DNA from: Lingula anatina
Taxonomy: Eukaryota > Animalia > Brachiopoda
Assembly: GCA_051362555.1 (NCBI GenBank)
Contig: CM120640.1
Span: forward strand, 13,392,001 to 13,456,000
DNA: 64,000 nt
Direction: 5' to 3'
In this document: positions 23,618-53,973 of the stretch, one piece after another
Layout of the letters: the number at the start of each line of letters is the position of its first letter
Position numbering within the stretch: position 1 is the stretch's first letter
Notes under the pieces: generated by a model
The model's database searches: none
Told to the model about the DNA's origin: nothing
What the model saw: the letters and a program-made list of their open reading frames with translations, nothing else
Translations under genes and position numbers: made by a program

Positions 23618-24091
23618 TCAGTCAAACAGGTGAGGAGCAGAGAAAATGATAACACACGTTGATGTCACAGTAAATATGGTAAAGAGCCAAATACATAGTC
23701 TGTCGATGACGCGGGCGGCAAACATCCACTCGCTACGTACTTCTGCAGCTTGCTCTTTCTTTTTCAATTTGTCTGATATGTGTTTGAGCTCCCTATGTAT
23801 ATTACGCAGTTCTATTTTAGTGGCACAGGCATGGGGGTTAGAATGATGTGTTGGTGAGAATCTGATATCATTGTCAACTTTTATTCTGAATGGAGTTCCA
23901 TTGGTTTTGGGAGATCTGATGTGATCGTCATCCATGTCTAAAACGTTCACCAACAAACTTTTGGAAGCACGCTCTTTCATCTCCAGTTCCCGCATATTGC
24001 TTCTTCTGATAATCGCTGCTCTGGTCAGCTCTCTGTCCGGCCTGGTCATTCGAAGAATCCATGCCAGCCATTCACAGATTCCAACTTTTAC
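23618..24091 (-). CDS. CHRNA7-like: Gene B exon 9 (M3-M4 loop, MA helix, M4, stop)
   Basis: Acceptor gatttcag|GTA AAA. VKVGICEWLAWILRMTRP...EWMFAARVIDRLCIWLFTIFTVTSTCVIIFSAPHLFD*. Confidence 0.95.
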   Translation of the reverse strand, partial: VKVGICEWLAWILRMTRPDRELTRAAIIRRSNMRELEMKERASKSLLVNVLDMDDDHIRSPKTNGTPFRIKVDNDIRFSPTHHSNPHACATKIELRNIHRELKHISDKLKKKEQAAEVRSEWMFAARVIDRLCIWLFTIFTVTSTCVIIFSAPHLFD

Positions 24092-24316
24092 CTGAAATCA
24101 TTATCAAACTACCATTTGTTACGTGACCAATGGGACCTTAGTCGAGTGAAGCAGCAGAGTGTTATATTTATAACAAATCCAAAGGCAAGATTCAATATTA
24201 TTAAACTAAGACTATAGAGTAGTATCTCTGAAAACATGGATCTTGAAGTCTGCAGGAATTCGTGTATTTGCGTGACTGCGTTCACACGTTATCATTGCTG
24301 GTTAAAACAGACTCAC

Positions 24317-24426
24317 CCATCTAGGCATCACGTGGGTGTCAGGAGAACGGAAGTGGTAATTAAGTACTAGCACAGTGAATACCACAGATAACGAGCAGAC
24401 GATCATGATGCAGCCAAAATACATGC
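24317..24426 (-). CDS. CHRNA7-like: Gene B exon 8 (M3)
   Basis: 110 nt, ctttcag| ... TGG|gtgagt. (G)MYFGCIMIVCSLSVVFTVLVLNYHFRSPDTHVMPRW. Confidence 0.95.
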
Positions 24427-25564
24427 CTGAAAGTAGAAGAATACGCCCAAATAGGAAGAGCACCGATTTTATTCACATTTGATTACTCATCCATTTATCT
24501 TATCAATTTTTTTTTGTCAAAGATGTGTAAGTCGAGTTGAGCGTGGTAATTGGAAGATCCATTCAAACTTGTATTGGTTTTTCATCTCTTTTTGTTGAGC
24601 GAGCGTTGATTGAAATTGAATATGCGCAGAACACAATTGTCAGATCTAGATAAAACTTATAACTGTAAAATATAGAGTTTCCACTTTAGTCATCTTTGGC
24701 TTCCTCAGAAAAACATACAATTTCCTAGGGATCCCGAAAATGGCTTTATTACACGAAAAAAATTAGTGGAAAATTGTCATTGTTCATATTATAATGTAAC
24801 CTCCCGATGTGTTACATTTTAACTATGTTTTATCACACTAGATGATTAACAGAGGAAAACTATGGATGGATTCGTTGAGACTTCAAAATTTCGTTTCCAT
24901 AATAAATTGTTGCTCCAGTACACTAATAATAGCAAATAGATGATTTTATTTCTTGCTGAGCGCAATTCTTTAAGGGAGACTATGTCGTTTGGGCACTTAA
25001 CAAATACTATAAAGGGCTTAACAAACGGTAGTTCATGTCATGCGTGGGGGGAATTAACAGTAACCCTGCAGCTTTTCTTTATGTGGCCAAGAAACCACTC
25101 AAAGTAAGCCATCATGAAAAAAAAATCAGGCAAATTCGTTATTCCACGTGCTGACCAAAAGAAAAATCAATGGCTTTTACTAATCAAAAAGAAGTTGGCC
25201 ATACTGCTTGCGACCTGAAGCTCTTAGATGGTTGTCAGATGAAGATAACAAAGTCGTTTCTTGTGACGCGCTTTGATGGATCAGGTTTTTTTTCTTCCCG
25301 TTCCAACGGGTATTGGTATGCTTCGCATCAAATAATAAACGCCAAGTTTTTCTTCTTTTTTACAATAAAAACATAAAGATAAAAGGAAATATTTAAACAG
25401 AATTTTGACAAGAAAGATCCTAGGTTTATGTCCAGTTCCAAATCACATGTTCATCTTTGTGACAGTCTCACATTGGAAAATTTTAGATAAACCTCAGTCA
25501 ATTTTAGAATAAATCACAATGGTAAGAGCTATAAGTCCTTTTTGACTATAAAATCTATTTCCTA

Positions 25565-25565
<1 letters not shown>

Positions 25566-25600
<35 letters not shown>
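25566..25600. repeat. (TTA)n microsatellite
   Basis: Run of TTA/ATT trinucleotides in gene B intron 7. Confidence 0.9.
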
Positions 25601-26223
25601 CATTATGACATGTATTATTAGTATCTTATTCATATGAGACGATTCTGAGTTTAAGTCAAAAAACGACGATAACAATTACTACAAAAGTGAAATCAGTGCC
25701 TATCCCATCCGTCGATACAGTTCCCTTGAGGACTCATTCCACTATTTTGTCTATGATGGCCAACTTGACGAGCCAAATCAATCTAAGGTTTTGACTTTAA
25801 TTTTGGACTTAATTCCCCATTCGGAAGAATCAATTAGGTACAAATACTTGGTCACCTGCGCTCCTGTTGTGTAGAATTTTGTATGTTAAACTAAAATTCA
25901 CTCTTTTGAAGAAATGTCCAAATGTAAAAATATACAGGGAAACAGGGAATTATTTATCCATGTGGAAGCTTGTGTTCTTGTTGTAGTTGTTGTTGCTGTT
26001 TTTTTCTTATCTGTTTTTGAATATACATGTACAGTACGGTTGTGACTTATTTGCCTTTTTTATTCAGCAAAAACATTTCTCTTCGACAAATGATGTTTTT
26101 TTTTTTATTAAATGAAGGCCATATCGTTTGTGCGTAAAATAGCAGTGGGTTTAGCGTTTATCAAAATTCTGTCAGATATTTTGTAAAGCAGAGTCTCTTA
26201 TTTGAACTTGATTTCAATCTCAC

Positions 26224-26310
26224 CTATCAATGGGACTGCATCAGATGTAGGCGGCATGGTTTCTGCCACCAACAGTAAGAACACAAACAAAGAAAGCAGC
26301 ATGGTGACAC
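26224..26310 (-). CDS. CHRNA7-like: Gene B exon 7 (M2 pore helix and M2-M3 loop)
   Basis: 87 nt, ctttcag| ... G|gtgaga. (G)VTMLLSLFVFLLLVAETMPPTSDAVPLI(G). Confidence 0.95.
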
Positions 26311-26691
26311 CTGAAAGTAAGTGGCTAGTTTTGTAATACTGATATAAAAATCTAACCATCTGACTAATTAGTGCAGTAAAAACTGTCATGTTATGAATGA
26401 AAATAAAGTGAAGTACTTTAAGTAATTGACAATATTTTTTTCATTTTAACCTTAACAATTTCCTATCTGCAGTAAAAGCACTTCATTGCATCGCCAATAT
26501 CATTTAAAAAAGTTTTCAATCAGCACTTAAATAGCATAAATCCCATCGACAATAAACATACAAGAAAGTCATTCTCATGAAATATGCTGACACATAATGA
26601 ATACAAAGTGATAGCTCATATCATTCCATGCACCAGTGCACAGGTACAGCAGTTATGGAATGCATAGGTATTTTGCCAATTCTAGCCTTAC

Positions 26692-26889
26692 CTAGTGAGA
26701 TCTTTTCACCAGCATCGGGTGGTAAAAGAAATATAAAAAGTGACATTGCGGACAACAGGACACATGGCAAGATGAGGTTGAACCCATAGTACAACGTTCG
26801 CCGACGAATATGGATGGTGTAAGTAACATCGATGTACGGATTATCTGGACAACAATCATACAGAAGGACATTCCGTTTCCCCGGCACGC
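26692..26889 (-). CDS. CHRNA7-like: Gene B alternative exon 6b (loop C, M1, M1-M2 linker; canonical variant)
   Basis: 198 nt, tctcttgtag| ... G|gtaagg, phase 1->1. [65 protein letters not shown]. Confidence 0.93.
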
Positions 26890-27384
26890 CTACAAGAGAA
26901 CGAGACTCAGTTCTATATACACAGCAATATTAGCCATTACATGCACACATGCAAAGTTCCAGTTTTAAAAGAAACTGAAACATATTTCAGCAAGCACGTG
27001 TATTGCCAGGTGTTGTCGGGAACAAAAGGCAGTGCCCTGATGCAGTGATGCCTAAAACACAAGCATGCAGCCGTGTAACAAGACTAAGCCCATAATATAA
27101 ATAAAAAATGATCACAGAAAAAAAACACTTTTGTTACGTGACTTAAAGGGTGAACGGTGGTAGCTAGGTGACACCCCTCATAAGCCTTTGAAGATATGGA
27201 ACGAAACCGGGGTATGTATCTACTCTAATAAAGTATCAAAATATTTATACTTTACACATGCGCACATGCATACATGCCACTGGGAAAACACGTATCCATT
27301 AAAAAAGGGACGAAACCAAAGATAGTGTGAAGTGGATCATTAAGCTAACTCAGTGGGAAATGGGAAAGTGCGTTGGAAACCTAC

Positions 27385-27582
27385 CATGATTAATTTTTTC
27401 GCCTGATGAAGGGGGTATTGCAAAGGTTAACACGGAAAGTGTAGAAACAAGACAACAAGGAACAATGACATTCATCATGTAATAAAGACTCCGTCTCCTA
27501 ATGTGACAGGTGTAGGTATTGTCAATGTATGGTTGAGTGGGACAACAGTCGTAAAAGTGCACATTTCTTTGCCCGGGCATTC
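27385..27582 (-). CDS. CHRNA7-like: Gene B alternative exon 6a (loop C, M1, M1-M2 linker; divergent variant)
   Basis: 198 nt, attttcag| ... G|gtaggt, phase 1->1, open frame. MPGQRNVHFYDCCPTQPYIDNTYTCHIRRRSLYYMMNVIVPCCLVSTLSVLTFAIPPSSGEKINH. Confidence 0.88.
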
Positions 27583-28472
27583 CTGAAAATGGTAAACATA
27601 AACTAGTGATACGGTCATAAAGAATACTTACTGTGCCCTATTTTCACTTTGAAATTTCACAAGAAACCATTCATTTTGTCCAACCAATACTTCCTTGCGC
27701 CTTCAAAATATAGGCAAACACACCAAATGATGTTCTCTATATTAAATCCTCTTGGGTACAGCACATACATTACATGTACATGTACATGTACGTTGACTAT
27801 TGCTCAAAACGGACAGCAAAAACGAATGTATGCATGTTGTTACGTAAGCACAGTGACAGGAATCAAAAGATATTTGTAAGAATAAAGGAAAAACAAGACA
27901 ACTTTCACTCAAGAAACAAACACTGACAAAATGCACAAATGAAAGACAAATTCACGACATGCACAAAAAATATTTTCTGTGATGTCTCAACTCCCTATAT
28001 AAACTTTCCTATTGAAAAGAATTTAACATGCTATATTGTTGTTCCATGACATTTAACAAAAAATACCAATAATTGTACTAGAAATAAATAAAATATCCCT
28101 TGTGATAAAACCTCATCAACACATAACCCACTAAATGGTGAAAATGACCTGCCGAATTACGGTACGGTAAACATTTATTTAAAGTCTTCTCCATCCCAGT
28201 GTACCGCAAACTTTCATAGTCCCATTCACAACAAGAAAGAAGGCAACAAAGTATATCGATTGTTCGAGATTTGGCTAAACAAGATCGCTTTTATTGTATA
28301 ACCCCACTATCCTAATGATTTTAACAATTTTAACAATATAACAAATTGTTGCCTGTATTAAATGTTATGGCCTTAGGGATAAAAATATATATCAAACATT
28401 CAATAAGACCATCATCCTAAAAATTAAGATATGATGAGTATGTGTATGTATGTGTCTTAAAGTATATCTTAC

Positions 28473-28726
28473 CAATAAGGTTCCATTCCCCGTTGGGAAT
28501 AAACGATGATGTATCTCCTTCCGGTTTCTCCAATAAGAGATTTATTTGGGTTCCATCGTGTGTCCATGAACCAAATTTCATCTTACACAATTGGTCATCA
28601 AAAGGAAACCATGTGATGTCAATTTTGCACGTGCTTTTGAACATTCCAGGCGGGACCCACTGACATAAACCGTTACTGTAGATTACGACATTGGTAGGAA
28701 ACGTGCCGTCAAATTTTTCGTCCGCA
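28473..28726 (-). CDS. CHRNA7-like: Gene B exon 5 (loop E, Cys-loop, loop B, loop F)
   Basis: 254 nt, catttaag| ... G|gtaaga. ADEKFDGTFPTNVVIYSNGLCQWVPPGMFKSTCKIDITWFPFDDQLCKMKFGSWTHDG...GEWNLI. Confidence 0.95.
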
Positions 28727-28988
28727 CTTAAATGAAATGAACCAGAAAATTTAAAGATATAAGAAATGATTTAGTAATTTCTATTTAATAATACATACAT
28801 CGACATTTTCATAATCATGAATCACTGTTTGTTATTTGGTATGAAACTAGCGCTTCCCTATGGTTTTATCATTTCAGCAAACTGTATGCAGAAAGGGTTT
28901 TATATATAAACAATAAAAGTCAAAAAAATTAAATTCTCAATTTATTAGAATACTTGCGTTAACTGAGAAATACAACGACTTCATTTAC

Positions 28989-29098
28989 CTGTTGTACAAA
29001 AGAACGTCTGGTTTCCACAAGTATTTAGCTGGCAGTCTAATGGACGTTATCCCGCCATACTCTGATGAATTCCAGGTCAGCGTATAGTCATGCCAGTA
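28989..29098 (-). CDS. CHRNA7-like: Gene B exon 4 (loop A)
   Basis: 110 nt, ttttcag| ... AG|gtaaat. YWHDYTLTWNSSEYGGITSIRLPAKYLWKPDVLLYN(S). Confidence 0.95.
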
Positions 29099-29199
29099 CT
29101 GAAAATAAATAAAAAGGTATGTCTCCTCAACAAATGTTTACCTGACGCATTTAACCTTCATCCGACCATAACTAGGTTTAGACAAGAGTATTTAAAATA

Positions 29200-29714
29200 C
29201 AGGGGTTGGCAAAAGTATTGTACCATTTTGCTTAACGGTGAACAACAGCTAGATTTTTTTTTCAATTATAATTTTTAGAAAAATGGTTAAAGACCAGTGC
29301 TTTGCCCTTGTAAACGCATGTTATTATGTCACTACTTATGTTTTGGTAGGATAGTCACATGATGTCAATATGGCAACCATCCTTCTAAGCAAAGACTGAT
29401 AAAGGTTCAGTATTCTTTTAGGGTCTATGTTGGCCCAGGCCCTGGAGACACTTTGGGTTGGAGCGTTTCTGGTAAAGGGTTGGTACTTTGCAAAAGTTTT
29501 TTTTGGGGGTTTGCATCTTGTAATTGGGCAGGCCAATGTACCCTGTTGATGCCATGCTGGTAATGTCACTCTTGTACAGCCCTGGCCCTGTGGTGTAGCG
29601 GTATCATCTTGGGTACTCCAGGAGTACACCGCGAGTCACTTTTCAAGGACGGGTTCCCCATGTCACATAGCGCACTATTCACACAGATGGTGCAATACTT
29701 TTTGTCACCCCCTG
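29200..29714 (-). mobile_element. Internally deleted, decayed Tc1/mariner DNA transposon in gene B intron 3
   Basis: TA flanks at 29198-29199 and 29715-29716. TIRs caggggttggcaaaagtattgtaccat / atggtgcaatactttttgtcaccccctg. Frameshifted transposase C-terminal relics: QDD.A, HRARAVQE*..GINRVHWPAQLQDANP, AWANIDPKRILNLYQSLLRRMVAILTSCDYPTK. Confidence 0.85.
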
Positions 29715-30816
29715 TAGTAGTTCTAATGCATTTATAATAGACAAATAGTCCATCTTTCTGGAAGTCCAACTTTTGAACCATAAAAAACATTGAGAAAATA
29801 CCTATTCCCAAGAGGCCCAACACAATTTATCTCCTGGTCGATATTTCCGCCCTTAAATACCCAGCCATATTCATATATATGTGCTTCTTAGCATGTATAT
29901 AAATTTGAAAAAGATACCTTTTTATTTCAGTTTTTAGTATGTGATTACATGGAAGTTACAGGAAAAATCAGAAAACCCAGGTAGATGGAAACATTGATAA
30001 AACCAGTGGCAAACATTTGATTCAAAAGGTGGCCTTAAGAAACCAATAGGATATCCCTTGAGAGCGGAATGAAGATTTGACATATTGCGACTATTTTTTC
30101 CATAATGTTTCATAAAAAGGCCACTGACTACTACTCATCAATCAATTAATATGATTATCATGAGGATGTTTCCAAACAGGTCAGGCTACTACCCTCACTT
30201 CAGTTTATGTGTAAATGTCAAGATAATTATCTTACATGGGGTCAATTTAATATCATGATTCAAAATATTGCACGGAATTTCGGGACAAAAAGTTGCAGGA
30301 TGGACGTTTTACAGGTAGCTCCTGTGTATATAAAGAGTTAACGAAACATCGAACTTTTCATCGAACCACGATGACAAATCTATCTCCAATGTATATCGAA
30401 AAACGTGACTAGCCATTATCTGAAAACATTTCCGCTATGATAACCTAATAATAACTGTCATGCAAATATAATGAAGATGAATAGATACAATGAACATCAT
30501 TCTTCACGTGTAACTGAAAAAACTGAAACCACTAATGAGAGTTTAGGAGTCCGGTAACTGCATGATTAATTACTACAGTACCTTATACTTCAATTGCAAC
30601 CATTTAACATATTATAGATCTGTAAATGACCTGATAACTGGTGATCTTTCAGTCGCAAACAATCTAACAAACAACAGAGCAATAGAATTAGCGAACTGAA
30701 ATGTCCATTATTTACGTTATCTCACTTCAAGTAAGGTTATAACAGTAAATTTGGCAATATGTTTCTGGAACGTTAAGTTTCAATGAAAAATACAAAATAA
30801 CCGACCTTCGACTTAC

Positions 30817-30861
30817 CAGGTTCAACCAAATGTTGGTGTTGATAACTTGATTCTTTTCATC
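30817..30861 (-). CDS. CHRNA7-like: Gene B exon 3 (loop D)
   Basis: 45 nt, cacatag| ... |gtaagt. DEKNQVINTNIWLNL. Confidence 0.95.
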
Positions 30862-31643
30862 CTATGTGATAAAAAATAAAATACGATGATAGAAAGTGCA
30901 AAGTTTATTCACAGTACAGTGATTATCTAAATTTAGATATGCTTCTTAGAAATGATCTATTTGTCGCATCAAACAGTGTAATTAAGCAAAGAATAAATTA
31001 GCAAAACAAGGCAATTTCACACGCTAGCAAAAAAGAATTCCCACATATTCCCCATGTACTCTAATCCTTTGAAACTGCGTCAAATTCACAGAATCCAGTT
31101 CAATATTCGTATGATGAATGAAACCATTAATGCACCCAAACATTCCGGACTAGATTATAATTTATCAGGCTTGTCTGATGTTTGTCAAAATAAAATCACA
31201 AATTATAGTAAATGTCCCTTGTGAGACATCAGTAATGAGTAATAATCAGATCTCTCCCACTACAGGGCAAATAATGAATGCGGTTGCAGTTGCGCTGCGT
31301 GAAATAACAATGGTTATTTTTCCAGAGTGCCCGATGAGCTTAGGCTGACAATAAAGTAAGCAGCAGTTTTTGGCAGGGAGATCTGATCAATTTTCTTATC
31401 ATTTTAGCCTTAACCGCTAAATGTAACTAAATGAATTCAACAGGCTCAGAAAAGTAAAGACCGGCTTTTGTAATTAAGTTATATAAATGGTTGCTGACTT
31501 TTTGCCCTCTGTCTCAAACCAATGTTCTGTAATGTTGCCAAGATTTTGGAACGCTGTGATGGAGCAATTTAATAAATAAGTGCTTTGAAGAAATCATTTT
31601 GATTAAATGAAAAGCTTTTGTTTATTCACGTGGTATAATTACA

Positions 31644-31982
31644 CCTCGTTAACATCGAACTTGAGATGCTTGGAGGACGTTTGGCCTACTCTCACCAACA
31701 GACTCAGGGAATCGCCCTGGGGTTGCAAGGTGGGATTTAAGTAATCATGATAGTCTTCCATGGCGTCTCTTTTGGTCTCAATCACACTTCATTGGCATCG
31801 TTCGCCAAGAGATATGCGAGTTTATGGAACTGGGCCCATTGTCCATCGCAAATGGTCTCTCAGGTTTCTTGTCGCTCTCCATCTGGTTTCAAAGTGAACA
31901 GGTGGCAAAGGCCAAGAGCGCTTTTAAAATTTCATGGTCGCCGTTATCGTGGTGAGAGGGTCGTAGCCCGGTGTAAACGAGG
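31644..31982. mobile_element. Possible MITE in gene B intron 2
   Basis: Short imperfect TIRs cctcgttaacat / gtgtaaacgagg bound a GC-richer interior. No clear TSD. Confidence 0.35.
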
Positions 31983-32113
31983 CAATAGTTTATTTACTAT
32001 ATAAAATCATCCTGGTCCAAACAAAATTACATGCAAACTGAAAGTGTCACTTGATATCTTTACAACAGTTAATGTGTATGTAATGTAGGAATGAATGCTA
32101 AACCAATACTCAC

Positions 32114-32259
32114 CACGTCTATTATTTGCTGTAATGTTAATCCAAATGTCACTTCTAAGGCTTCACTTTCATTTTTCACTGGTCTTTCAAGAAGGTTATA
32201 TGACCTATTTTTAAATATTTCGTCCAAAAGACGTCTTTGGTGATACCCTTGTTCCGTGC
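32114..32259 (-). CDS. CHRNA7-like: Gene B exon 2
   Basis: 146 nt, attccag| ... |gtgagt. (G)TEQGYHQRRLLDEIFKNRSYNLLERPVKNESEALEVTFGLTLQQIIDV (alpha7-type ERPV.N.S..L...LQQIIDV). Confidence 0.95.
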
Positions 32260-34386
32260 CTGGAATATATCAGAAAAGAGAAGCTTGTAAACAGAAATAT
32301 ATGGGGTGCATTAAATGCAAACACAAAGAAAAAGATGACACAGAATTATACAATATGTGTCAATTAATTTTTAGTATATAGGCAGATTTAAAATTAATTC
32401 GCCTCTCCACTTTACCTTGGTGGGAAATCCACAGGCTATTCTTATAGGCGGTAAATCATCGAGTTTTTTCTTACAATTAGGGCGTATAACAACATTTTAT
32501 TGTGATTAAATTGTTTTTTTGCATTTTCAATAAATTGGTATTTGATATTTTCAATTAAAATACGAATGTAATGGAAAATATGTTTCAATGATGCGTTAGA
32601 CATCAGTCGATGGCAGTGTCCGAATAATCAAATCGTCAGGGAAACAAAACATGGCTAGCACACTACTGAAACTGATCCAATTTGATGTCTGACATCGATC
32701 TACTAGGAGTCCCTGGAATTATAGCAGCAAGAACGAAAAATAGGCATTAGTACTGCCAGCTTTAGGCTTTAATCTATCACCCGTTCCATGCTTATACCTT
32801 ATACTAATGATCACTTATAGGACGGTATGATCACATAAGAAAATCTTCTTATCTTTTTTAACGATCATCAAAAGACACCTATTTTACCCATCAAAGCTAA
32901 AAGGCAAGCACGACGGCACCGATTCAACATTTGAAAGAAAAATGGTAATAGGTATTTAGCACATCAGTCAGACTTCTCTCCCTTCCTTAGGTAATGTGTA
33001 TCGACGTGTGTTTCTTTTTAATCATATCCGCTTTTTACAAATTAATATAATGAAATAGCTCTTTACTCAATGCGCAACATATCTTCAATATTTCTAACAA
33101 ACAAAATTGGCTGCGCATTCATTGTAAAGCGTATGTCACTAAACAATTTATCGAAGACTTGGGTTCATTAAACGAACAAAACGGATGACATTTGATACAG
33201 AAAGCGCGAGCGTTCAGCTTTAAAAAGTCAAAGAGCAACATTCATAAAGGTACTTGCACGCATTTTAATGACCATTTAGATGGAAATGGTTTTCAAAAAA
33301 ATGCGATTGCATGCACCTCCAAATGATCGTAGTTGATTTTATTTTTCAGTCTATATTTCCTAATATAAGATAATGCCGGTGGGTGTAATGGCGATAGGCA
33401 CCCTTAAGAAAATAAAGCATCGCAATTGTATTGCATGTCCCATATAATCAATTGTCCTACCACACTTCCTTTGCCTTTCTGAGTTACTGTTCTATTTAGT
33501 ATAAAAACTCCTGGAGACGAGAGACGCAAGAACCATAATGGTTCTATTCATAATCGATCTTTGTATAAACAGCTATGTGTTTGTACTCTTTTGTCACAGT
33601 TTCTTCCGCTTTTACTTTCTTTTGTAGATCCTACAGTTTTTCGATTTTACAAAATTTCATTCATTTCTACCATGTGCAAAACTGCACTAATGTATTTTTC
33701 TTCTAAACAATCACCTGAAAGCACTCTTTAATAGTTGCAGTCTACAATAGTCGCAATGTAACTTAATCGCCTTCGTTATTCGTGCTTGAGTTAATTTGTC
33801 AAGTGCTTGTTATTGAATTAGCTTTTAAGCCACAAATGTGTGGAGCTCGATATCGGGCTGGGTTTGTGAGAAGATGTCACTTTTCGCAACTTTAAATCGC
33901 ATTTGAAAAAGTCAGCGAACCACATTTGTAAATACGCTTTTTGAAAACAATTTTCGGAAATATTTAGGTGCAATTCCGCTGCCTACATGAGTATAAAATG
34001 AACTAATCATGAGAAGCAAATGCGCGTCTTTGGTACACCATGATACCGAGTAATTGCTTCAATATTCGGTCATTCATTTACGAAATCACATGACAATAAC
34101 TTATTTTGCGATTTTATGTTGGTTGTTATACTGAGCACGTAAAAATAATTAAGCCGTCTAACCGTGAAACAACATTAATTTACATAACAATTCACTGAGT
34201 CTGTTGCTATAAGAGTCGTTTCAGATTAAAAAAACAGATGTTTTTTTATATAATAGTTTGTCAACATTATGCACCATTGTGTGTCTTTTACTAATTAGCC
34301 ATTTAATTTTTAAGGATGTGAGATCAAACCCACACTTCAACGCGTACATGTATTTTAACGCCTGAGATGCTTTCATCTACACTCAC

Positions 34387-34462
34387 CTGGCGGAAAACAG
34401 CAAAAAATTATGAGGAATGGTAGGAATATCGTACACAAGCAGTTCTTCTTAAGCATCTCCAT
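34387..34462 (-). CDS. CHRNA7-like: Gene B coding exon 1 (signal peptide)
   Basis: MEMLKKNCLCTIFLPFLIIFCCFPP(G), CCAG|gtgagt in phase 1. A strong acceptor (ctttttcttttcag|) at 34583 suggests an upstream non-coding exon. Confidence 0.8.
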
Positions 34463-39700: not shown

Positions 39701-42361
39701 AAACGCTTTTTATCTCCTTTTTTTATGTTTAATCTAAGCTCCAAGACCATTGGCTTGGCAATTAGTTTTACTTCCAGGTGTGACAACGAAGGTAAGGCAA
39801 TTACTCTGTTGCAGCCAAATCGTTCGCAAAATGCTCTTAGTCCAATATCACAAAGTCGACATTACGTTGTCGGTTTTTTACTGTATTTAAGCAGTCTCGA
39901 AACAAACACGAAGTCTCTTATATTATATTCTAAAGATCCGTTCGTCCACGCTTCTGTAAAATATAAACTGGTGTATAGCAGTTCACTTTTTATATAGAAC
40001 CCGTAAAATGTAATTAAAACTACAGTATCACGTTTTAGAGCATTGTGTCTACCAGTCTATTGATGGGTGTACCCCCCCCCCCCCCAAACACAACCACAGT
40101 GCCCAATTTCAGTGAAATTTCATTAGCTTCCTCTGCGAGCACGCGTTTCATTCAATTCTTTTTCTGAACAGAAAAAGGAAATGGCTTATAAATTATCACC
40201 AAATTAATATAGACTACATACATATATATGCACAGGTAAAATTCATTAACATTGTCTTTAACCCCTATATTCCCTTCTTGTTCAATATTAAAATTTTTTG
40301 TACGGATTTAAGACTTAAAGTAGATGTTCTCATCTTATGCACACACTCTCTCCTCTCTCTCTCTCTCTCAAACAGTGCAGTATCCACTGGACATTTTTTT
40401 CAAATTTAGGCCTTGATTATCAAACACCTCAAGAAAGGCTCATTATCTCAGCAGTCGTCTTTAGACAAATTCGTTCTAAAACACTATTCAATCATAAATA
40501 TTATCATTTGTTCTAGATGTCATCCAATTTTCCTTCCATCAAGTTCTGCTCCTTTCCATGGGTACTGAATCCCAGTAACAATTGTACATGGTCGTTGTGT
40601 AACACGTCTTGCACTTATTCGGTGGCTACAGACCATGTGTGTTTGCTTTGAGGAAAGGAATGTCTTTTGTTTACCCAACAGGGTTCCACTTCGGGCATAA
40701 GCGGAAGTAATTTGGGCTTCCTCGTCGGTGGAACCGTCATTTTCCCTGATGGCTGTCCTCTGGCAAAACTCCTAACAGCTTAATTTGCTTAGTCGCGCTC
40801 CCGTTGGAAGAATTCATAAGTGGCTTCTTTTATAACAGTGCTCAGTCTCTTAAGAATTGGTTGTTTAGCAATGTATTATTAAGAACTATTGGCCTCATGC
40901 CTTTTTCATTGTGTGGCTGTTATTGTTGTTTTGATTTTGTCTCATTTCAAATTCAGTTTTGAGTTCAAATTTCCTTTTTTCATAAATTTGCCAACTTGCA
41001 GGTATACTCACAAAGCTTCTGTCTTATGAGGAGCGCCATAGAAACGTAAATCCCCAAACCATCTCTGATTGTTGTACAAGTAAAAATGTTACAATGAGTC
41101 AATAAATATGATAAAGGTACCTGTACCCTTTTGGTACTTTATTGCGGTAGGCTTGTGAACGCAAATGTACGTGACAGGCAAAGAGACAATGGAAAGTTGG
41201 GGTAACACGAGCATGTAGACTCAACACTGTCATCAGTGACAGAAGACTGTCTTAAACAATACTTTTGTATTGCCCAATGTGTTTCATTTTCAATGCTCTT
41301 GAAACTACATGTATCTGGTGTTATACTTCATGCAAGCACGTACGCACTTAAATAAAAATATGATTAATAAGATGTACATGTATGCTTGGTGCATATGAAA
41401 TAATGTATGTGCATCTGTTATCACATGGAACAATTTCACAATAAAACGTATTTTTAGTATTTGCCTTCTGAGATACAAATGAACACGTACGGATCAACGC
41501 AATTTGAAATGCTACCTGTTACTATACAGAGTTACTAGTCATCAGTTCTGTATATACTAATCTTTGATATATTCAAATCAGACCATTTTTTTAATATCAA
41601 ATTTGTTATATATTACTTCATTTGAATTAGAAAGTAATCCGGTACTTTGATAAAAATGCCTTTTTTTATACCATGCATAACAGCAAGAGAAAATAGATGT
41701 TCCTAAACTCCTACAGATTAAAAAGAATGCATAAGTGGCCCAACCACTGATATTTTTTTTACTTACTGCCTTTCAATGGATTCCCGCGTAATAAGTCTTG
41801 GTATATCTTTTATGTATAGGAAATCGAATTGAGACTCCTCTTCAGTTTCAGTTTGGCTTGAGGGAAAACAGTCAAAATAGAACAGCTTGATTAGTAGAAA
41901 ATGGTGCCGTATCAGTCATGATGTGGAGTACTTCTTACAGAACGATGCCTGTGGCATATTCCATTCCGACTTTGATCCCTGCCTGTCGTAACTTATTGTT
42001 GTTCAACAGATGGTTTGTATATCATGACCGGGCTTCAATCCCTCGTGTTCAATTTACGCACACTCCCTCGCTCTTTTTCCCTCTTGTTCTCTCTCTAAAC
42101 CGAGTGCGATGTATTATTTGTACATTTCCCCACATACACCAGCAATTAGTCAAATTGTTGCCAAGTCAATATTCAGACTATCAGTCATCGTGTGCATCTC
42201 TTATATAAGTTATACAGAGAGCAAACATTTACTGCATATGATCGCCCTATATGTATGTTTAACTCTGCTTGCAATGGTAATTTCAATAAATCACGAGTGC
42301 AATCTTACCTGCTCAAGGGGGACTTGACCCAAAACCTCAAGTACAGAATATGTATATATAG

Positions 42362-46135: not shown

Positions 46136-46591
46136 TTACATGATACCATGTGGTGTGGATGCCAACACAACCAGAGTACAAATTACTATAGCAGCGCTGA
46201 AAGTTATGAGACACAAACGGTCGATCACGTGGGCCGCAAACTTCCAATCAGACGAAACCACCGAACTCGAGTCGTCGTCTTTCATCTTGTCTGTAATGAC
46301 TTTGAGTTCTTTGTAAATATTGCGGAGTTCATTACGAGTGGAGCATGCATGGCTGTCGGAGCTGAAGTGTTCTTTTGAACGGGTGTCGCGGTCCACTTTG
46401 ACGCCCATAAGACCATTTCTGTGGTAGTCGTCGACCTCTGCAACGTTAGCGAGTAGACTGGGGGAATTTCGCTGCTTCTCCTCCATCTTGCGCAGCTTCT
46501 GACGCTGTAGGATGGCCTTTCTGGACAGGTCCTTACCTGGGCGTGACACGAAAAGGATCCATGCCAACCACTCACATATACCATATTTCAC
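46136..46591 (-). CDS. CHRNA7-like: Gene C exon 9 (M3-M4 loop, M4, stop)
   Basis: Acceptor gttctag|GTG. VKYGICEWLAWILFVSRPG...DWKFAAHVIDRLCLITFSAAIVICTLVVLASTPHGIM*. Confidence 0.95.
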   Translation of the reverse strand: MKYGICEWLAWILFVSRPGKDLSRKAILQRQKLRKMEEKQRNSPSLLANVAEVDDYHRNGLMGVKVDRDTRSKEHFSSDSHACSTRNELRNIYKELKVITDKMKDDDSSSVVSSDWKFAAHVIDRLCLITFSAAIVICTLVVLASTPHGIM

Positions 46592-46883
46592 CTAGAACAT
46601 CATTGAGCAAGTAATTAGTCACCCATATAATTATAATAATCAGTCTGAAGGTGTATCATATATCAGTTACTGAATAACATTTATAAAAAAAAAAACACTA
46701 TATTGAGATAAAATAAAAGAATACTTTTTCGCTAAATATTTTCTATAGAGTCATAACTGATGACTGACATTTTGTATACCTAGACTATAAATCAAAGGTT
46801 TGAATGCTGCACGAGCCTATTAAGTTTTATGTAATCATGTTTCATATTTTGTAACATCAGTTTACTACGTGAATTTTCCTCAC

Positions 46884-46993
46884 CCAGCTTGGCATGTCGT
46901 GTGTGTCGTCTGCGCGATGGTGATAACTCAGCACAAGAACTGAAAACACCACCGACATGGAACACAGGGCAAGTATCATTCCAAAGTATATCA
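46884..46993 (-). CDS. CHRNA7-like: Gene C exon 8 (M3)
   Basis: 110 nt, tttactttccag| ... TGG|gtgagg. (V)IYFGMILALCSMSVVFSVLVLSYHHRADDTHDMPSW. Confidence 0.93.
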
Positions 46994-48470
46994 CTGGAAA
47001 GTAAAGAGAGAAAACGCCATGGTCCATCTGTCACAGAGCAAATAAAAAATACAACATGAATATGAAACTTCGACTTGGGATTAAATTAATATGCAAAAGC
47101 GTTTTCGTGCTTCATTCATGTCTTTTCATCAGTGTTCCTTAAATGTTTCATATTAATCCTCAGTGAAATGGAAAATACAGGTAAAATCATGATATACGTG
47201 GCATCATAAAAACAAGCGTTAAAGCAATCATGAACTGATGATAAATATTTGAGTTCCAACAGATTAATGAACCAATGTGCCAAAATCTTACTAAAATATT
47301 GAATACTGCAAAACCTTTTGTAACTATCTAGCACAACGCTATAATTTCTTAAGGATCAATCTATGATCATGCAATCCGCTTAATGTATTCAAACTTCTTA
47401 AGGCAAAACAAGAGCAAAATATAATGAAGTTAAAATAATCACTATTAATTCAAAACGCTTCATATTTTATATAGATCCATTATGTTTCATTCAAAAGCAG
47501 AAGAACCCTTACCGCTGGTCTTCAGGAGGGAGCATGCATGTTAAAAAGGATAGACAAATGAGCATTCACGCTGTGAAATTCAAAGATACTGTATCAATAA
47601 GTAAGCATATGGATTAAAGTACAGTAATGAACAGATCATTATATACAATAGTAAACATTATGTCAATTAGAAAAACAGCATATTAGTAATAGAGTAATAT
47701 CGCCGGTCCTCAACTAAATGGTCAAGGTAGGCGGGGACTATGCAGCACGGATCGTGAATGGACCTCAAACAGCTACTGTATGTCTGAACCACTCTCGCAT
47801 CCAAATAAAGAATTATACAATTGGGGTCCCTCAACTGCCGTAAATAGTTTAGTTATCAAATAAACACGATCATGAACGTTGAGTTCCGAACAGTGTTGGC
47901 AATCTATATCTGTTAGAGGGAATCGTCATTAAATTTAATATCTTTCGAGAATAATCGGTAATAAAACCATTACTGTACGGACAGTATAACTACGGAGAAG
48001 TAAAAATGAGTGCTTTGATTACCAACAAAGACAAAAGAGAAAAATACTTGCACGATTTCGTCTAAATAACAAAATCTGCAAGAAAATGCACGAGCGATGA
48101 CATAAGCAATGGATAAAAGTTTTGTATCAAACAAAGAAAAGTTATTTAAAGTTAATATAACAGATAAAAAAATACAGCAATGTCGTGCTACCCAAGGGAC
48201 TAAAGTAAATCGAATGTTACAATTTTTACAGAAAAGGTTTTTTTAAAAAAGTTTATTTGATTCAAAACAAAACAGGTTATTTAAAAAGATCATCGTTAGA
48301 GCAATGAAGTAAGCAGCAGGGGGAATGCAGCACCATAACATTCCAAGCGCACGAAAAGATTTTTAATGGGACAAGAAGCTGCCTGTTAGAGATGCCATTA
48401 AATTAGCTACAGGGACTCAGCGTACAGGAAACTGCCAATAGCCGCATCGTCTACATATGGTAGACCCTAC

Positions 48471-48557
48471 CTATCAGGGGCACCGCATCAGACGTCTCCG
48501 GTAACACATCTGCTACGATCATTAAAAATACTGTCAGTGACAGCATAATAGTGACGG
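48471..48557 (-). CDS. CHRNA7-like: Gene C alternative exon 7b (M2; Glu at 24')
   Basis: 87 nt, ctttatttcag| ... G|gtaggg. (A)VTIMLSLTVFLMIVADVLPETSDAVPLI. Not in the ORF track. Confidence 0.9.
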
Positions 48558-49290
48558 CTGAAATAAAGCAACAAAAAGAATATACAAGCCGTTGGTTATA
48601 TTTCACCTACAGGCTAAATACTCACTGGTGTCGGAGGTCTACACTTACCTCTTCCATAGGAAGAAATATTAGTATGTTAGAATACATAAAAACAAAAAGA
48701 AGAGCAAGATGAAATCCTACTACTGCAGCATTACGTCACTACGCTTATTGCTTCCTAGCCTTGGGCAGGGCGTTCATAACGTCACCATAAACAAAACGGA
48801 GTGCATGTTATTTTATACTGAGAGCTGAAACAAACTAATCGACGATTAGCGTCTAGTTGCATTGCAGCTGGTTCAACTGCTGCAAGCCAAGTACTGCAAC
48901 ACGTTCGTGAGACAGAGACTGGATCACCAGACCCTTTCGGGGGTTCCCACTAAGAATCCTCTCGCCAACCTTTCAGGGTAAAACAAAGTAAGTGTCATAT
49001 TTTAGCACTGCCATGAAAATGTTTCATAGGAATGGAAAATTGGTGAAAATGAGTATATAAAACGGTAGGTTATATCTGGGGATTATTTGGTGCAGTCACG
49101 CTGTGTGAATAATTGCACGACTAATACCAGATGGTTTCCACTATATTTTGAAATCAATTTGAAACCAAAGCAAGCAGAATGTAACAAGCACTGCAACCCA
49201 CACACTACGTCAAACTCGGCCAATGAACCAACGCGTGCGTCCAGTGGTGCGACACACGGTCTCTCAACGTCACAGCAAATTGCCCCCTAC

Positions 49291-49377
49291 CTATCAAAGG
49301 CACCGCATCGGACGTCGGTGGTAAGACGTCCGCCACGATCATCAAAAACACGGTCAATGACAGCATTATAGTCACAG
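49291..49377 (-). CDS. CHRNA7-like: Gene C alternative exon 7a (M2; Pro at 24')
   Basis: 87 nt, aattttcag| ... G|gtaggg. (A)VTIMLSLTVFLMIVADVLPPTSDAVPLI. Confidence 0.9.
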
Positions 49378-50016
49378 CTGAAAATTTCAACACATGCAAG
49401 TTTCTTAACTGGAAATTGTAACCATTGATAAAAAAACAGAGAGTATAGGAATCACCTGTTGGTTCGTTCGTGACCACAAATACATGGCTACGCAAGAAAT
49501 CGGCATCGATATTTGATATTAATTCAGCAAATATACATGCAATTATAGATCCTTTTGCCGTTAAAATGCAAACTAGAATTCAAATTTACATAACAGAAGC
49601 CCATATACATTCATGCGTGTTATGCATAATAAAAATATAATAATGCAGCTACATTGATTCACATATCAGCAAAGAGCTACTAAACATTTGAAAAGATTAC
49701 ATAAAGAGCATTATATTTGGTTAAGTTATTATCAAAGGAATTGAAATTAAAAAATAAAACCATATAGAGTAAAACAAAAAATTGAATAACTTAAAAGTCT
49801 GAGAAAATCAAACGTCTACCTTTCTACATTCTACAAAAATGTATATGATTTTTTAACTCTTCAGTAAATATGCGTTTGACTCGAGTGTTCATATTTTGAT
49901 GGATTGTCACTCTCATTTAACGAATTGTCACAGAAGGTGATAAGAAATATATATTCTAAGATAAAACATTATTTTATAAATGTACTTATTCGAACTAAAT
50001 CTTTCTCCTTACGCAC

Positions 50017-50214
50017 CAAGTGATACTTTCTCTCCTGCATCCGGTGGCAACATGAACGTCAGGATGGCGAGCAGCGACAGCAGCACACAGGGAATGATGA
50101 GGTTAAAGCCATAGTACAATGTCCGTCTCTTAATGTTGATGGTGTAGGTGACATCCACGTACGGGGTGTCTGGACAGCAGTCGTAGTAGATCTCATTACG
50201 CTTGGCGGTGACAC
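50017..50214 (-). CDS. CHRNA7-like: Gene C exon 6 (loop C, M1)
   Basis: 198 nt, ctttcag| ... G|gtgcgt. [65 protein letters not shown]. Confidence 0.94.
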
Positions 50215-50698
50215 CTGAAAGAATGAAATATCATTCCTTCAAGTACCAAAAGGACAAAATATGAAGTTTGGTGTTAGAACAATGATGATAGACAGAAATG
50301 ATTCCTGGGTGTACGGTGCATCTATCGAAAGCTGGGGTCTCTATATTTTAGGTGCTGATACCCATGCTGCTAAAAGAAACATGTAAATAAGCTATTACAG
50401 TAGGTCGGTCAACGCAATCAATATATATTTGATATACAAGTTGACTCTTAAACCTAATCCTAGGTTCGCTAAAAATATTAGATGGCCCACGTAAAGCAAT
50501 ATAACTTTTTGTACAGTAGCATGAAGATGTATGCGTGTGCATTATTTTTCTGACTTTTATAAGGGAAAAATAATGATGATTTATATATAAAAAAAAAACA
50601 AACAAAATTAACATTGTACGACAATATTATGACGGCAACTGTGTTCTCGTTTAAAAGTAAACTGCTGTTTACAAGTTCATCCATTTCAATCTGATTAC

Positions 50699-50952
50699 CT
50701 AACAAATCCCACTCGCCGTTCTTGATGAAGGACGATATATCGCCCTTTTCGGACTTTAAAACCAGGTCCACCTGAGAGCCATCATAAGACCATGTGCCAA
50801 ACTTCAGTTTACAGAACTGCATGTCGAACGGGAACCACGTAATGTCAATGTGGCAGGAGCTGCCGAACATGCCGGGCGGGATCCAGTTCATGTACCCACT
50901 ACTGTAGATCACAACGTTCGTGTGGTAGGTTCCGTCAAAGGCTTCGCTGGCA
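50699..50952 (-). CDS. CHRNA7-like: Gene C exon 5 (Cys-loop, loop B)
   Basis: 254 nt, tctcctag| ... G|gtaatc. ASEAFDGTYHTNVVIYSSGYMNWIPPGMFGSSCHIDITWFPFDMQFCKLKFGTWSYDG...GEWDLL. Confidence 0.95.
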
Positions 50953-51135
50953 CTAGGAGAAAGGAAAATAAAATAGATGTCTTTTTGAAATTTACAGGTT
51001 CACACAGTTGCTAGAGGTGCACAAAACTATATTTAGTTTGCTTATCGGACATGTAAGTATATCTTATACACGTTGTCGAACAAGAACTTTCTAATGGGTA
51101 CCGTTATATAATTGTCTCAAGACAAATAGGCCTAC

Positions 51136-51245
51136 CTGTTGTACAGAAGAACATCGGGTTTCCATAACTTGCCAGCGGGTATTCGAATTGCAGAAATATT
51201 TCCAAATTCTGCTTCATTCCAAATAAATGTGTAATCTGTCCATGT
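51136..51245 (-). CDS. CHRNA7-like: Gene C exon 4 (loop A)
   Basis: 110 nt, ttttaccag| ... AG|gtaggc. TWTDYTFIWNEAEFGNISAIRIPAGKLWKPDVLLYN(S). Confidence 0.95.
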
Positions 51246-51425
51246 CTGGTAAAAGAAATGAATATAAATGTATCATCGTAAAGTTCACAAGAAGTAGTTT
51301 GTTTAAACTGCTTTACAATCAACTGAAGCCAGTTAAACAAATCCCAATATATCTGGTTTTGTGCAAAGAATATTAAAATCAATGAGAAGACATTGATGGC
51401 TCTTTCTCTAGTGCATTTTACTCAC

Positions 51426-51470
51426 CATGTCCAGCCAAATGTTGGTGTGGATAATCTGATTCTTTTCATC
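51426..51470 (-). CDS. CHRNA7-like: Gene C exon 3 (loop D)
   Basis: 45 nt, tttcttcag| ... |gtgagt. DEKNQIIHTNIWLDM. Confidence 0.95.
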
Positions 51471-53099
51471 CTGAAGAAAGAACACAGAACACCAAATGAC
51501 CCGCTATCGGCTGAATGCTTTCATAGAAAGTGCTGGTTACTTAAGGAAACCCTTGACCTTACTGTTACAATTAATATTTTACAACATGCTATTATCTTTA
51601 AAATTTAAATCAAAAGAATTGTTATTTTTCGGTTATTTATGGTACAGCGGCAGTTTATAAGAACATGAACCTACGACCCTTGTGTACCGACAACCAATAC
51701 AAAAGTATTTATACCACAGTGATCCAGGGCTGAAATAACCTGTTAAAACAGCTTAGCGCTCACTAAAAAACACTTGTTACGATGATACCAAAAGGAAGTA
51801 TATTTATCTTATGGAAAGATATTTTCCTATGCTCCGCAATGCAAACATACACAGAATTAGCATGCGGTTTAGCACGAGTGAATTTGAAAAACACTTTTTA
51901 TGACTACTTTTTTAAATGGCCGCAAGGGATGATAAGATAATCTTAGTGAAGATAATTATAAAAGGTTAAGTTGGAATGTAGATCTACACGTACGAGCACT
52001 AAGTAGCCGCGTAAAAACACCTTCCAGGTATCAGTGCGTGTGGTAATATGTACAATACAGGCAGAGCTTCACCAAAGAACACAGGTCCAAACTTCATGTG
52101 AAGCATTCAATCCGAAATTTCGGTGCACTTTATTTTAGGATAAATCTGTGGTAATCTAACAGAATAAACCAAGCTTCTGACTTAGACAATAGCCTTTTTT
52201 TTACTTTTTGTAAAATAGTCCAAAAATTCTATTTCAAGTGCACTGCAACTTCACTGTCCTGGGTCAAATGCGACTAGAATCCTCGGTAATAAAGTTAAGA
52301 CCAGCCTACCGCATACGTTCTTTTGTAAACCTGGCACATAGAGCACGTAATTTTAACCACAGTAAGCAAACAGCTTTCATGAAATTTTTAGATTGTTTCT
52401 TATATATTCTTTATGTACTCTACAAATGAAACCCAAACGGTTAAAGTCAATGAAAATCATTCACACTAGAAATGGACCTATTGTTTTCAATAGTTTGGCC
52501 TCTAATTTAAACAAAGCTTAAAACTGTCAATTACGGATGTAGATCACCCGTTATGCTTCTCATTCACATAGTATGTAGGCTGACCATTTTCCAATTCCTT
52601 ACTTACGTTATGTGGATAATATACAGCTGTGAATACAAGTATAGTCCACCAAACTCATTGCTTTAACATAGCTTGGACAGGGTTGAGTTTGTAATGAAAA
52701 TATAATAATTGCAATGTATACGAACACCGCATTCTCAAAAATGGCTTTAATATATCCTTACACAATGCTAGGCGTCGACGGCACTGATCCGCGGTGAGCT
52801 TGACATCGATTATGTAACTCTAGAAAACATTTCTTTATAAATTGAAATTGAAAGTTTAGTCGGTCGAGTTAATTTGTATCGTCGTGTTAGTGCCGTATGG
52901 GCGCCGTGCGATATGACCACTATATACATAAAATGCAACAGTGAACAGTGGGGGCTTCTGGTACATGTAGTCTGACATTTATTGCTAAGTTCAAGACAAA
53001 TATTAGAAAATTTGAAAACGTGCTCTAGGTTACAGAAAATGCAAATGGATTTTAATCCAGCTTTGATAAAAAAAATTGTTTACACATAACACCTCTTAC

Positions 53100-53245
53100 C
53101 ACATCCAGAATCTGCTGTAGTGTAAGACTGAACGTAACGTTCAGCACGTCTTTTTCATTGGCAACGGGTCGCTCTAGAACATTGTGTGCTCGATCCACAA
53201 ACAACGTGTCAAGCAGTCTCCTCTCATGCTTTCCTTGGTGAGATT
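53100..53245 (-). CDS. CHRNA7-like: Gene C exon 2
   Basis: 146 nt, cttcttag| ... |gtaaga. (E)SHQGKHERRLLDTLFVDRAHNVLERPVANEKDVLNVTFSLTLQQILDV. Confidence 0.95.
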
Positions 53246-53973
53246 CTAAGAAGTAAACGTTTTAAGTATTAAAATGTAGGTTTCCATACAGACAATTAAA
53301 GCATTGCAAAATAACATAGCGTTGTGTTCAGTGGAGATAACCAATTGATAACACACTGATAACACAGGTATGATGCATTTAATCATTGAATGAAAAGTTT
53401 TCTTATGAATAGCACTTTTCATACAATATCACACGAACATTTTAGAAAGTGTGAAAAAATGAACTGGAGATATGTAAAAAAATTAGCAATGTTCCACTGA
53501 CGTTGCCAATTTGGCGTACCATTTTTGCGGCTATGTCTGGTAACAAGGCAGAGTTCTACGTATTTCTTTCTGAGGGCACACCTGGCAGGTGTATATCATA
53601 TTGCAGGATAACAGATATGTAGACTTCTAGAAACATGCGACATTAAGACATGCACAGCTGGCCTTAACATATCGGTTCCGCCATAGTGATTTTCTTTATG
53701 GAGCATTTGGTTGCACTTGGCAAAGCAGACGATATGAGTTCATGTATCATGAATATATTTAGAATGAATAGAGAGCGAGGTATCTTACAGACGTACAACA
53801 ACCAATTAGATGTGATAATTTATATCTGAGACTGTTAGACGTGTAAAATCATATGATAAAAACGTTTATATATTTGCACTGGGGTTCGGATGAAAACATG
53901 CATATATTCTAAAAGAATTCAATCCTGGGTGATAATTTGGGCATTCAAATACGCATACCCGCCCCCCCCCTCC

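Follow-up and report, generated by a model that had tools for sequence, protein, structure and literature searches.

Gene structure and exon layout

The window, by which we mean the whole 64-kb stretch of Lingula anatina DNA analyzed, carries two alpha7-like nicotinic acetylcholine receptor (nAChR) genes in tandem, at 46136-53250 and 23618-34462, both on the minus strand. We will refer to the latter as the host gene and to the former as its paralog. Read with exon 6b, the nine coding exons of the host gene (Table 1) give a conceptual product that matches P0004 exactly, that is Lingula anatina alpha-7 (XP_013406819.1), the sole member of its cluster, which contains 6b but not 6a. The host gene is transcribed in RNA run X4, in which spliced joints are present. 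Loose ends of X4 reads at 34582 match a site at about 41768-41800 (minus strand) with an adjoining GT donor, probably an upstream non-coding exon. In addition, M2 of the host gene, in exon 7, reads LSLFVFLL, with Phe at a site, presumably 12', where most relatives carry Thr.

Between exons 5 and 7 lie exons 6a and 6b, of 198 nt each and both phase 1-1. Each has an AG in front and a GT behind, both are open in one common frame, and 495 nt separate them. When each exon was compared with the window by tblastn, the host gene showed one exon 5 and one exon 7, and its exons 3 and 4 proved single as well. Coordinates, phase and tblastn thus agree with an earlier note on this DNA, which had described two equal-length, same-phase, open AG/GT exons between a single exon 5 and a single exon 7. 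Being neighboring homologs that match in length and phase and have valid splice sites, 6a and 6b are tandem duplicates. We take them to correspond to exon 7 of human CHRNA7 and exon 7 of insect alpha6.

Table 1. Features of the host gene and of the intron between exons 6a and 6b (positions in the window).
Feature	Position	Strand	Length (nt)	Remark
Host gene, CDS span	23618-34462	-		Alpha7-like nAChR subunit; 9 coding exons with 6b
Exon 1	34387-34462	-	76	
Exon 2	32114-32259	-	146	
Exon 3	30817-30861	-	45	
Exon 4	28989-29098	-	110	
Exon 5	28473-28726	-	254	Constitutive; Cys-loop region; Pfam Neur_chan_LBD, E 3.7e-25; single copy in host gene
Exon 6a	27385-27582	-	198	Divergent, unannotated alternative; loop C, beta10, M1, M1-M2 loop to M2 3'
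UGCAUG motif 1	27265-27270	-		Candidate RBFOX site; about 115 nt 3' of 6a donor, within a run of three GCAUG
UGCAUG motif 2	27064-27069	-		Candidate RBFOX site; middle of intron 6a-6b
UGCAUG motifs 3 and 4	26940-26953	-		Candidate 6b repressor sites; 51-64 nt upstream of 6b
Branch-point-like CTAAT	26929-26933	-		Adjoins motifs 3 and 4; consensus match only
Exon 6b	26692-26889	-	198	Canonical, dominant alternative; residues 212-276 of P0004
Exon 7	26224-26310	-	87	Constitutive; M2 from 4' and M2-M3 loop; single copy; joined to 6b and exon 8
Exon 8	24317-24426	-	110	
Exon 9	23618-24091	-	474	

Protein segment encoded by exons 6a and 6b

The two copies are identical at 39 of 65 amino acids, a recount that gave the same figure as the earlier note, and at 114 of 198 nucleotides. 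Recomputed identities likewise place 6b nearer to exon 6 of the paralog (50017-50214; 47/65) than to 6a, which itself shares 34/65 residues with the paralog exon. Both translations keep YDCC (the YxCC motif), the second Tyr of loop C, RRR, the Pro of M1 and GEK, as had been stated. Exon 6a aligns to residues 201-263 of the human alpha7 precursor; it thus begins where loop C does and ends, beyond M1, at M2 3'. The 13 best matches of a PDB search with 6a were all human alpha7 (best E 6e-18). The vicinal Cys in YxCC, the GEK before M2 and alpha7 as the nearest solved relative are the marks of an alpha7-like alpha subunit.

Of the 26 residues that differ between 6a and 6b, the half with loop C and beta10 accounts for nine, and the stretch that begins with the pre-M1 linker and reaches 3' for 17. 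If prime positions are assigned by the M2 numbering that we assume here, D, S and L of 6b at pore positions -4', 2' and 3' are replaced in 6a by S, N and H, while -1' Glu and 0' Lys are identical; the 3' position aligns with human L264. The exon had been proposed to swap the principal agonist-binding loop and the selectivity-filter region together. It does cover loop C, M1 and the pore entrance, but the Tyr/Cys-Cys/Tyr core of loop C, -1' Glu and 0' Lys are unchanged, so that this proposal was overstated, and agonist site and cation selectivity are likely kept. From its sequence, the swap is predicted to leave the agonist core and cation selectivity as they are and to alter M1 packing and the inner pore mouth; the agonist site would thus be less affected by 6a than the M1 helix and the inner pore mouth. 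According to the available text of PMC2064938, the GEK Glu sets calcium permeability in vertebrate alpha7.

Conservation of exon 6a

Synonymous sites are saturated between the copies (pS 0.93; pN 0.27), and identity at the first, second and third codon position is 40/65, 53/65 and 19/65. None of the 13 near-invariant columns has been lost in 6a. By comparison, 6b was allowed to decay randomly to equal nucleotide identity in 20,000 simulated runs: the amino acids that remained identical averaged 19.9 and never exceeded 30 (39 observed), a mean of 3.7 and a maximum of 10 of the 13 near-invariant residues survived (13 observed), and the products of 10% of the runs were free of stops. Given the saturated synonymous sites and the 13 invariant columns, 6a was constrained through most of its history, which upholds the suggestion that it is old. 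Judged by this substitution pattern, both copies are under purifying selection; a recent relaxation of 6a is compatible with the data.

Four residues of 6a, namely N in beta10, S at -4', N at 2' and H at 3', are absent from 142 distinct homologous segments taken from 408 stored proteins, and at the beta10 site 140 of these 142 have I, V or L. The four unique residues would fit relaxed selection as well as specialization.

Expression of the two exons

Raw-read runs were taken by species label. Seven of nine were covered (X1, X4, X5, X6, X7, X8 and X9), with 6-30% of the reads of each run, and a joint was reported when at least three reads carried it. They were treated in two sets, X1, X4, X7 and X9 on the one hand and X4, X5, X6 and X8 on the other, with an identical read subset of X4 in both; detailed counts came from the latter set. 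X1 and X7 held little besides repeat-derived reads, and in all four runs with detailed counts a dispersed repeat in intron 5 (28150-28430) attracted reads of both orientations with many mismatches.

The joint of exon 5 to 6b was carried by three reads in X4 and 10 in X5 (13 in two of four runs), with 11 more loose-end reads fitting this junction, and the joint of 6b to exon 7 by two and five reads, respectively (seven in all). Neither joint was found in the 6-30% of reads taken from X6 and X8. No joint of 6a reached three reads in any of the seven runs, again at 6-30% of the reads each. However, binned depth in X8 solves to a read piece at 27496-27583, which reaches the 6a acceptor and one shared base beyond it, and a piece of the same read in exon 5 at 28475-28535, which together account for 149 of 150 letters; the mate lies fully in exon 5, and depth over 6b is zero in this run. 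From these binned depths, we infer one fragment spliced from exon 5 to 6a. In X4, the depth over 6a solves to one unspliced fragment, 27495-27608. None of the four runs has any depth in the bin with the 6a donor, and a joint of 6a to exon 7 was not seen; likewise, a 6a-6b joint is not listed for X4, X5, X6 or X8, where no read spans the 6a donor. Of the junctions named beforehand for counting, 28473>26889 (n = 13) and 26692>26310 (n = 7) were thus observed, and 28473>27582 is represented by the inferred fragment. In these samples, 6b dominates among the spliced forms, and 6a contributes a minor one at best.

These data also bear on whether the pair is genuine. Haplotypes or pieces of the paralog might have been stitched together during assembly, a view for which no supporting point was found. 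The copies are 58% alike in nucleotides with saturated third positions, RNA fragments lie over the 6a acceptor and inside the 6a-6b intron, and a matching layout occurs in other phyla. Since the low identity and the unspliced RNA over the 6a acceptor make misassembly unlikely, we give such an artefact practically no weight.

Alternatively, 6a may be a formerly functional exon that is now decaying, being spliced as noise and yielding no working subunit. At most one spliced 6a fragment against 13 joints and 11 loose-end reads for exon 5-6b, the missing 6a in the annotated protein, the four unmatched residues (including a polar N in place of I, V or L), the long 6a branch in trees and a neighboring paralog without a 6a-type copy would all suit this explanation. 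Yet frame, length, both splice sites and the near-invariant residues are intact despite saturated synonymous sites, a UGCAUG cluster is present, and just 6-30% of each run was sampled. We regard decay as unlikely. The reading that we favor, with a probability of about 0.7, is that of two old, intact loop C-M1 exons, of which 6b is the main form and 6a is likely a functional, minor either-or alternative, the choice probably being switched by RBFOX-type proteins.

Possible mechanisms of exon choice

The joins 5-6a-7, 5-6b-7, 5-6a-6b-7 and 5-7 are all stop-free. With every join in frame, nonsense-mediated decay (NMD) cannot enforce exclusivity, as the earlier note had argued for co-inclusion, and this mechanism is ruled out for skipping as well. 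Steric exclusivity arises from a branch point near the upstream donor, a very short intron or a far-upstream branch point. It was rejected here, as the intron measures 495 nt, the branch-like CTAAT is only at -44 from 6b and AGs lie at -18, -25 and -87. Pairing of the Dscam type between docking site and selector needs strong competing intronic duplexes, and was rejected with a best duplex of -24.1 kcal/mol, a value that 25 of 40 control pairs also attained, and a perfect match of 12 nt, which 89 of 1000 controls reach. Pairing of intron 5 (27826-27837) with the UGCAUG elements is at chance level as well and was discarded.

The 6a-6b intron contains four sense-strand TGCATG motifs, starting at 27270, 27069, 26953 and 26945, where 0.22 are expected (Poisson P = 8e-5, counted after the motifs had been noticed). 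No second such cluster exists on either strand of the 64 kb, and the other eight introns of the host gene have none or one each. The layout, in which UGCAUG motifs follow one exon and precede the other, all on the sense strand, is that of an RBFOX switch. RBFOX binding downstream of an exon promotes its inclusion. The default without RBFOX would then be 6b. In some cell type with RBFOX, its binding to the motifs downstream of 6a and around the branch site of 6b would favor inclusion of 6a and repress that of 6b. Motif position puts the chances of an RBFOX-type switch from 6b to 6a at about even.

Twin exons in other animals

A word-based search with 6a alone gave no matches, and an exhaustive search revealed no close relative, the best identity being 64% among the best 150 of 3218 matches. 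Nevertheless, twins of this exon are annotated in annelids, a nemertean, a flatworm, crustaceans and hemimetabolous insects, and are thus not peculiar to the Lingula gene; two loop C matches were found in 16 of 254 proteins, one of them spurious (P0054). A one-for-one swap is annotated in the nemertean Lineus (XP_064652944, XP_064652968), in Owenia (CAH1797306) and in the barnacle Pollicipes. In Lineus longissimus, isoforms X3 and X6 have a divergent copy in place of exactly this exon of X1, X2 and X4 (five isoforms aligned), and CAH1797306/7310 of Owenia fusiformis differ from 7307/7309 by the same swap; among five Owenia models, two swap the exon and one has both copies. Both copies occur with the divergent one first, as in Lingula, in Owenia, Capitella P0117, Macrostomum P0259 and two further proteins. 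The bryozoan Watersipora has isoforms X1 and X2 that both use an exon of the divergent type (a-type) alone; in P0338/P0407, the annotated isoforms of this animal, the a-type exon is followed by Ser rather than Gly at 4', and no canonical copy was seen in their cluster.

The divergent copies of six two-copy or swap sets carry F, C, F, M, C and F at 3', hence never Leu, where Lingula 6a has H. Residues other than Leu occupy this site in 14 of 142 segments, which include all nine with Lys after RRR. In most spiralian divergent copies RRR is followed by K and 3' is F, against S and H, respectively, in Lingula 6a. In the alpha7 twins of arthropods (barnacle, decapod, isopod, louse, bug, termite, locust and stick-insect), on the other hand, the canonical copy comes first and the 3' Leu is kept.

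Mutually exclusive splicing, as presumed in the earlier note, therefore finds partial backing: the annotations of Lineus and Owenia show either-or use of this very exon, whereas Lingula itself contributes one inferred exon 5-6a fragment and no 6a-donor reads. By analogy with these relatives, a transcript would contain either 6a or 6b. No swap of this exon appears among the aligned cluster members of Biomphalaria (6 of 9), Aplysia (3/3), Bradybaena (3/3) or Tubulanus (2/2), for which annotation gaps are a possible cause. Other segments are swapped in some of these animals: a 45-nt exon 3 segment in Lineus (P0122, P0233-P0236), Tubulanus (P0123/P0238), Biomphalaria (P0245/P0246) and Aplysia (P0224/P0252), and an exon 4 segment in the Lineus alpha7-like gene.

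Exon 6a might also be functional in a purely regulatory manner, by being co-included with 6b or by giving a non-assembling subunit, in either case lowering receptor number. Co-inclusion is in frame, models with both copies are annotated in Owenia, termite, locust, Rhodnius, planthopper and barnacle, and the 3' His replaces a Leu whose Ala mutant abolishes surface expression of a human alpha7 chimera, as the available text of PMC12608704 reports. However, isoforms of Lineus and Owenia carry the divergent exon alone, as do Watersipora X1 and X2; a poison product would not need conserved agonist-binding residues; and the double-copy models may be gene-prediction artefacts, as database models with a doubled loop C-M1 segment are likely merged alternative exons. 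We consider a regulatory product improbable and retain the reading of 6a as a minor either-or alternative.

The paralog differs from the host gene in its cassettes. No 6a-type exon or remnant was found in the paralog region of the window. The paralog has twin 87-nt M2 exons instead (49291-49377 and 48471-48557, minus strand), annotated as isoforms X1 and X2, that are identical at 70 of 87 nt and differ by one residue (Pro/Glu, in the M2-M3 loop); they occupy the same position as insect alpha6 exon 8, with two TGCATG preceding the first copy and two following the second. Since the host gene lacks a twin M2 exon, each gene has kept or gained a different cassette.

Origin of the exon pair

Six near-duplicate arthropod rows were removed for the sets of 38, 58 and 57 segments, and one Watersipora row for that of 57. 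In a 44-segment tree, Lingula 6a and the divergent copies of Lineus, Owenia and Capitella split from the rest with support of 93/91, while in a free 58-segment tree the a-type exons do not form one group. With 57 segments, a single a-type clade is the best-scoring topology and separate duplication in each of seven pairs is rejected (p-AU 0.004), in a test that is partly circular because 7 of the 14 a-type rows had been picked by the signature itself. Four separate duplications reach p-AU 0.056 with 38 segments. When exon 6 was left out and whole proteins were used (28 proteins, 408 columns), the tree put every host among alpha7-like subunits but, with support of 46-63 at spiralian nodes, did not sort them into one-to-one orthologs.

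Lingula 6a would, on the evidence of its relatives, descend from an ancient spiralian 'a' exon that lay 5' of the canonical copy and lacked the conserved 3' Leu. An ancient origin shared by 6a and the divergent exons of worms is, in our view, somewhat favored. An old duplication within the Lingula lineage, with a convergent likeness to the worm cassettes, is a possible but tentative alternative. A Lingula-only clade of 6a and 6b is not rejected (p-AU 0.34 with 38 segments, 0.44-0.45 with 57), 6b is as near to 6a as any other sequence (39/65), both Lingula exons share a one-residue insertion in loop C, and the arthropod twins, reversed in order and with the 3' Leu retained, indicate that the exon was probably duplicated more than once. 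Conversely, the copy order is the same as in annelids and flatworm, and the loop C insertion is present too in the Lingula paralog and in bryozoan a-type exons. When diagnostic columns are taken from the six pair-defined sets alone, 8 of the 10 that separate the two types show a non-canonical residue in 6a, against four in 6b. At only three of these eight does 6a equal the a-type residue, and its score is higher against the canonical set (213) than against the divergent set (192).

Possible function of the 6a isoform

In alpha7 chimeras described in the available text of PMC12608704, L264F keeps the NACHO effect and loses RIC3 synergy, and L264A abolishes surface expression; a direct contact between L264 and NACHO is doubted there. 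NACHO is an assembly factor according to PMC11565801, the available text of which says nothing on the position of L264. Extrapolating from this human work, an a-isoform would still be a cation channel with an intact aromatic core, differing in assembly, chaperone use or gating. As the a exon exchanges exactly M1 and the base of M2, altered assembly or gating is the leading guess, although by analogy such a change in the 6a isoform can be put forward only tentatively. In a broader scenario, which we find doubtful, an RBFOX-switched spiralian 'a' exon would predate the split of flatworms, annelids, nemerteans and lophophorates, exchange M1 and the otherwise near-invariant 3' Leu (L264) as a single unit, shift RIC-3/NACHO dependence and partner choice and keep the agonist core, the twin having been reinvented by arthropods.

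Should 6a be functional, invertebrate alpha7-type genes would give two channel types per gene, in worms as well as in pest insects with insecticide-target receptors. The swapped segment is the one proposed to set the need of alpha7 for NACHO and RIC3 (available text of PMC12608704), and natural a/b pairs would be matched test constructs; if the spiralian 'a' exon holds true, the pairs are natural chimeras for asking why M1 and lower M2 set chaperone need.

Comparison with known systems

Mutually exclusive nAChR exons on other segments are known from insects, and swaps of the present exon are already contained in genome annotations. What is new is the brachiopod case, the a-type signature across five spiralian phyla, a first, inferred trace of spliced RNA and the UGCAUG cluster. 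No description of a cassette joining loop C, the coupling linker, M1 and the inner pore mouth was found in the literature searched, where subscription journals are sparse, and an insect report may exist; papers on pea aphid or cockroach may mention alternative exons in alpha7.

Exon 3 of insect alpha6 encodes loop D. The alpha6 exons 3a/3b and 8a/8b/8c resemble the Lingula pair in being tandem, old and of equal length in an alpha7-like gene and in having one dominant copy, and they are used singly, as the Lingula pair probably is, as far as the available texts of PMC1919356 and PMC10906874 go. They differ in segment, exon 8 encoding TM2-TM3 (PMC10906874) and the Lingula pair loop C, M1 and the M1-M2 loop. 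Exons 4/4' of insect alpha4 are likewise tandem alternatives in an nAChR alpha subunit, but unlike in Lingula they cover loops B and E and the Cys loop of a non-alpha7 subunit and include no membrane segment (available parts of PMC2064938 and PMC10906874). A title cited in PMC2064938 concerns the effect of the alpha4 alternative exons on assembly efficiency, and the text available from PMC12309072 also treats the alpha6 and alpha4 cassettes. The earlier note's statement that insect cassettes lie on other segments holds for alpha6 exon 8 and for alpha4, although the alpha4 pair is exon 4/4' (available text of PMC2064938) and not 3/3'. The Lingula exons, which encode loop C to M2 3', are not duplicates of a TM2-TM3 exon, of exon 3 or of the loop B/E/Cys-loop exon.

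Regarding control, the pairs egl-15 5A/5B and unc-32 7a/7b of C. elegans have, like Lingula, UGCAUG upstream of the second exon, and there RBFOX represses the second exon and favors the first; egl-15 exon 5B is repressed through UGCAUG in its upstream intron (PMC3585155, available text). Binding and effect are demonstrated in the worm, whereas for Lingula a switch is proposed from the motif cluster. Finally, the annotated isoforms of Lineus, Owenia and Pollicipes, which are database models rather than studied systems, swap the very same exon, and their spiralian copies share with Lingula 6a a residue other than Leu at 3'.
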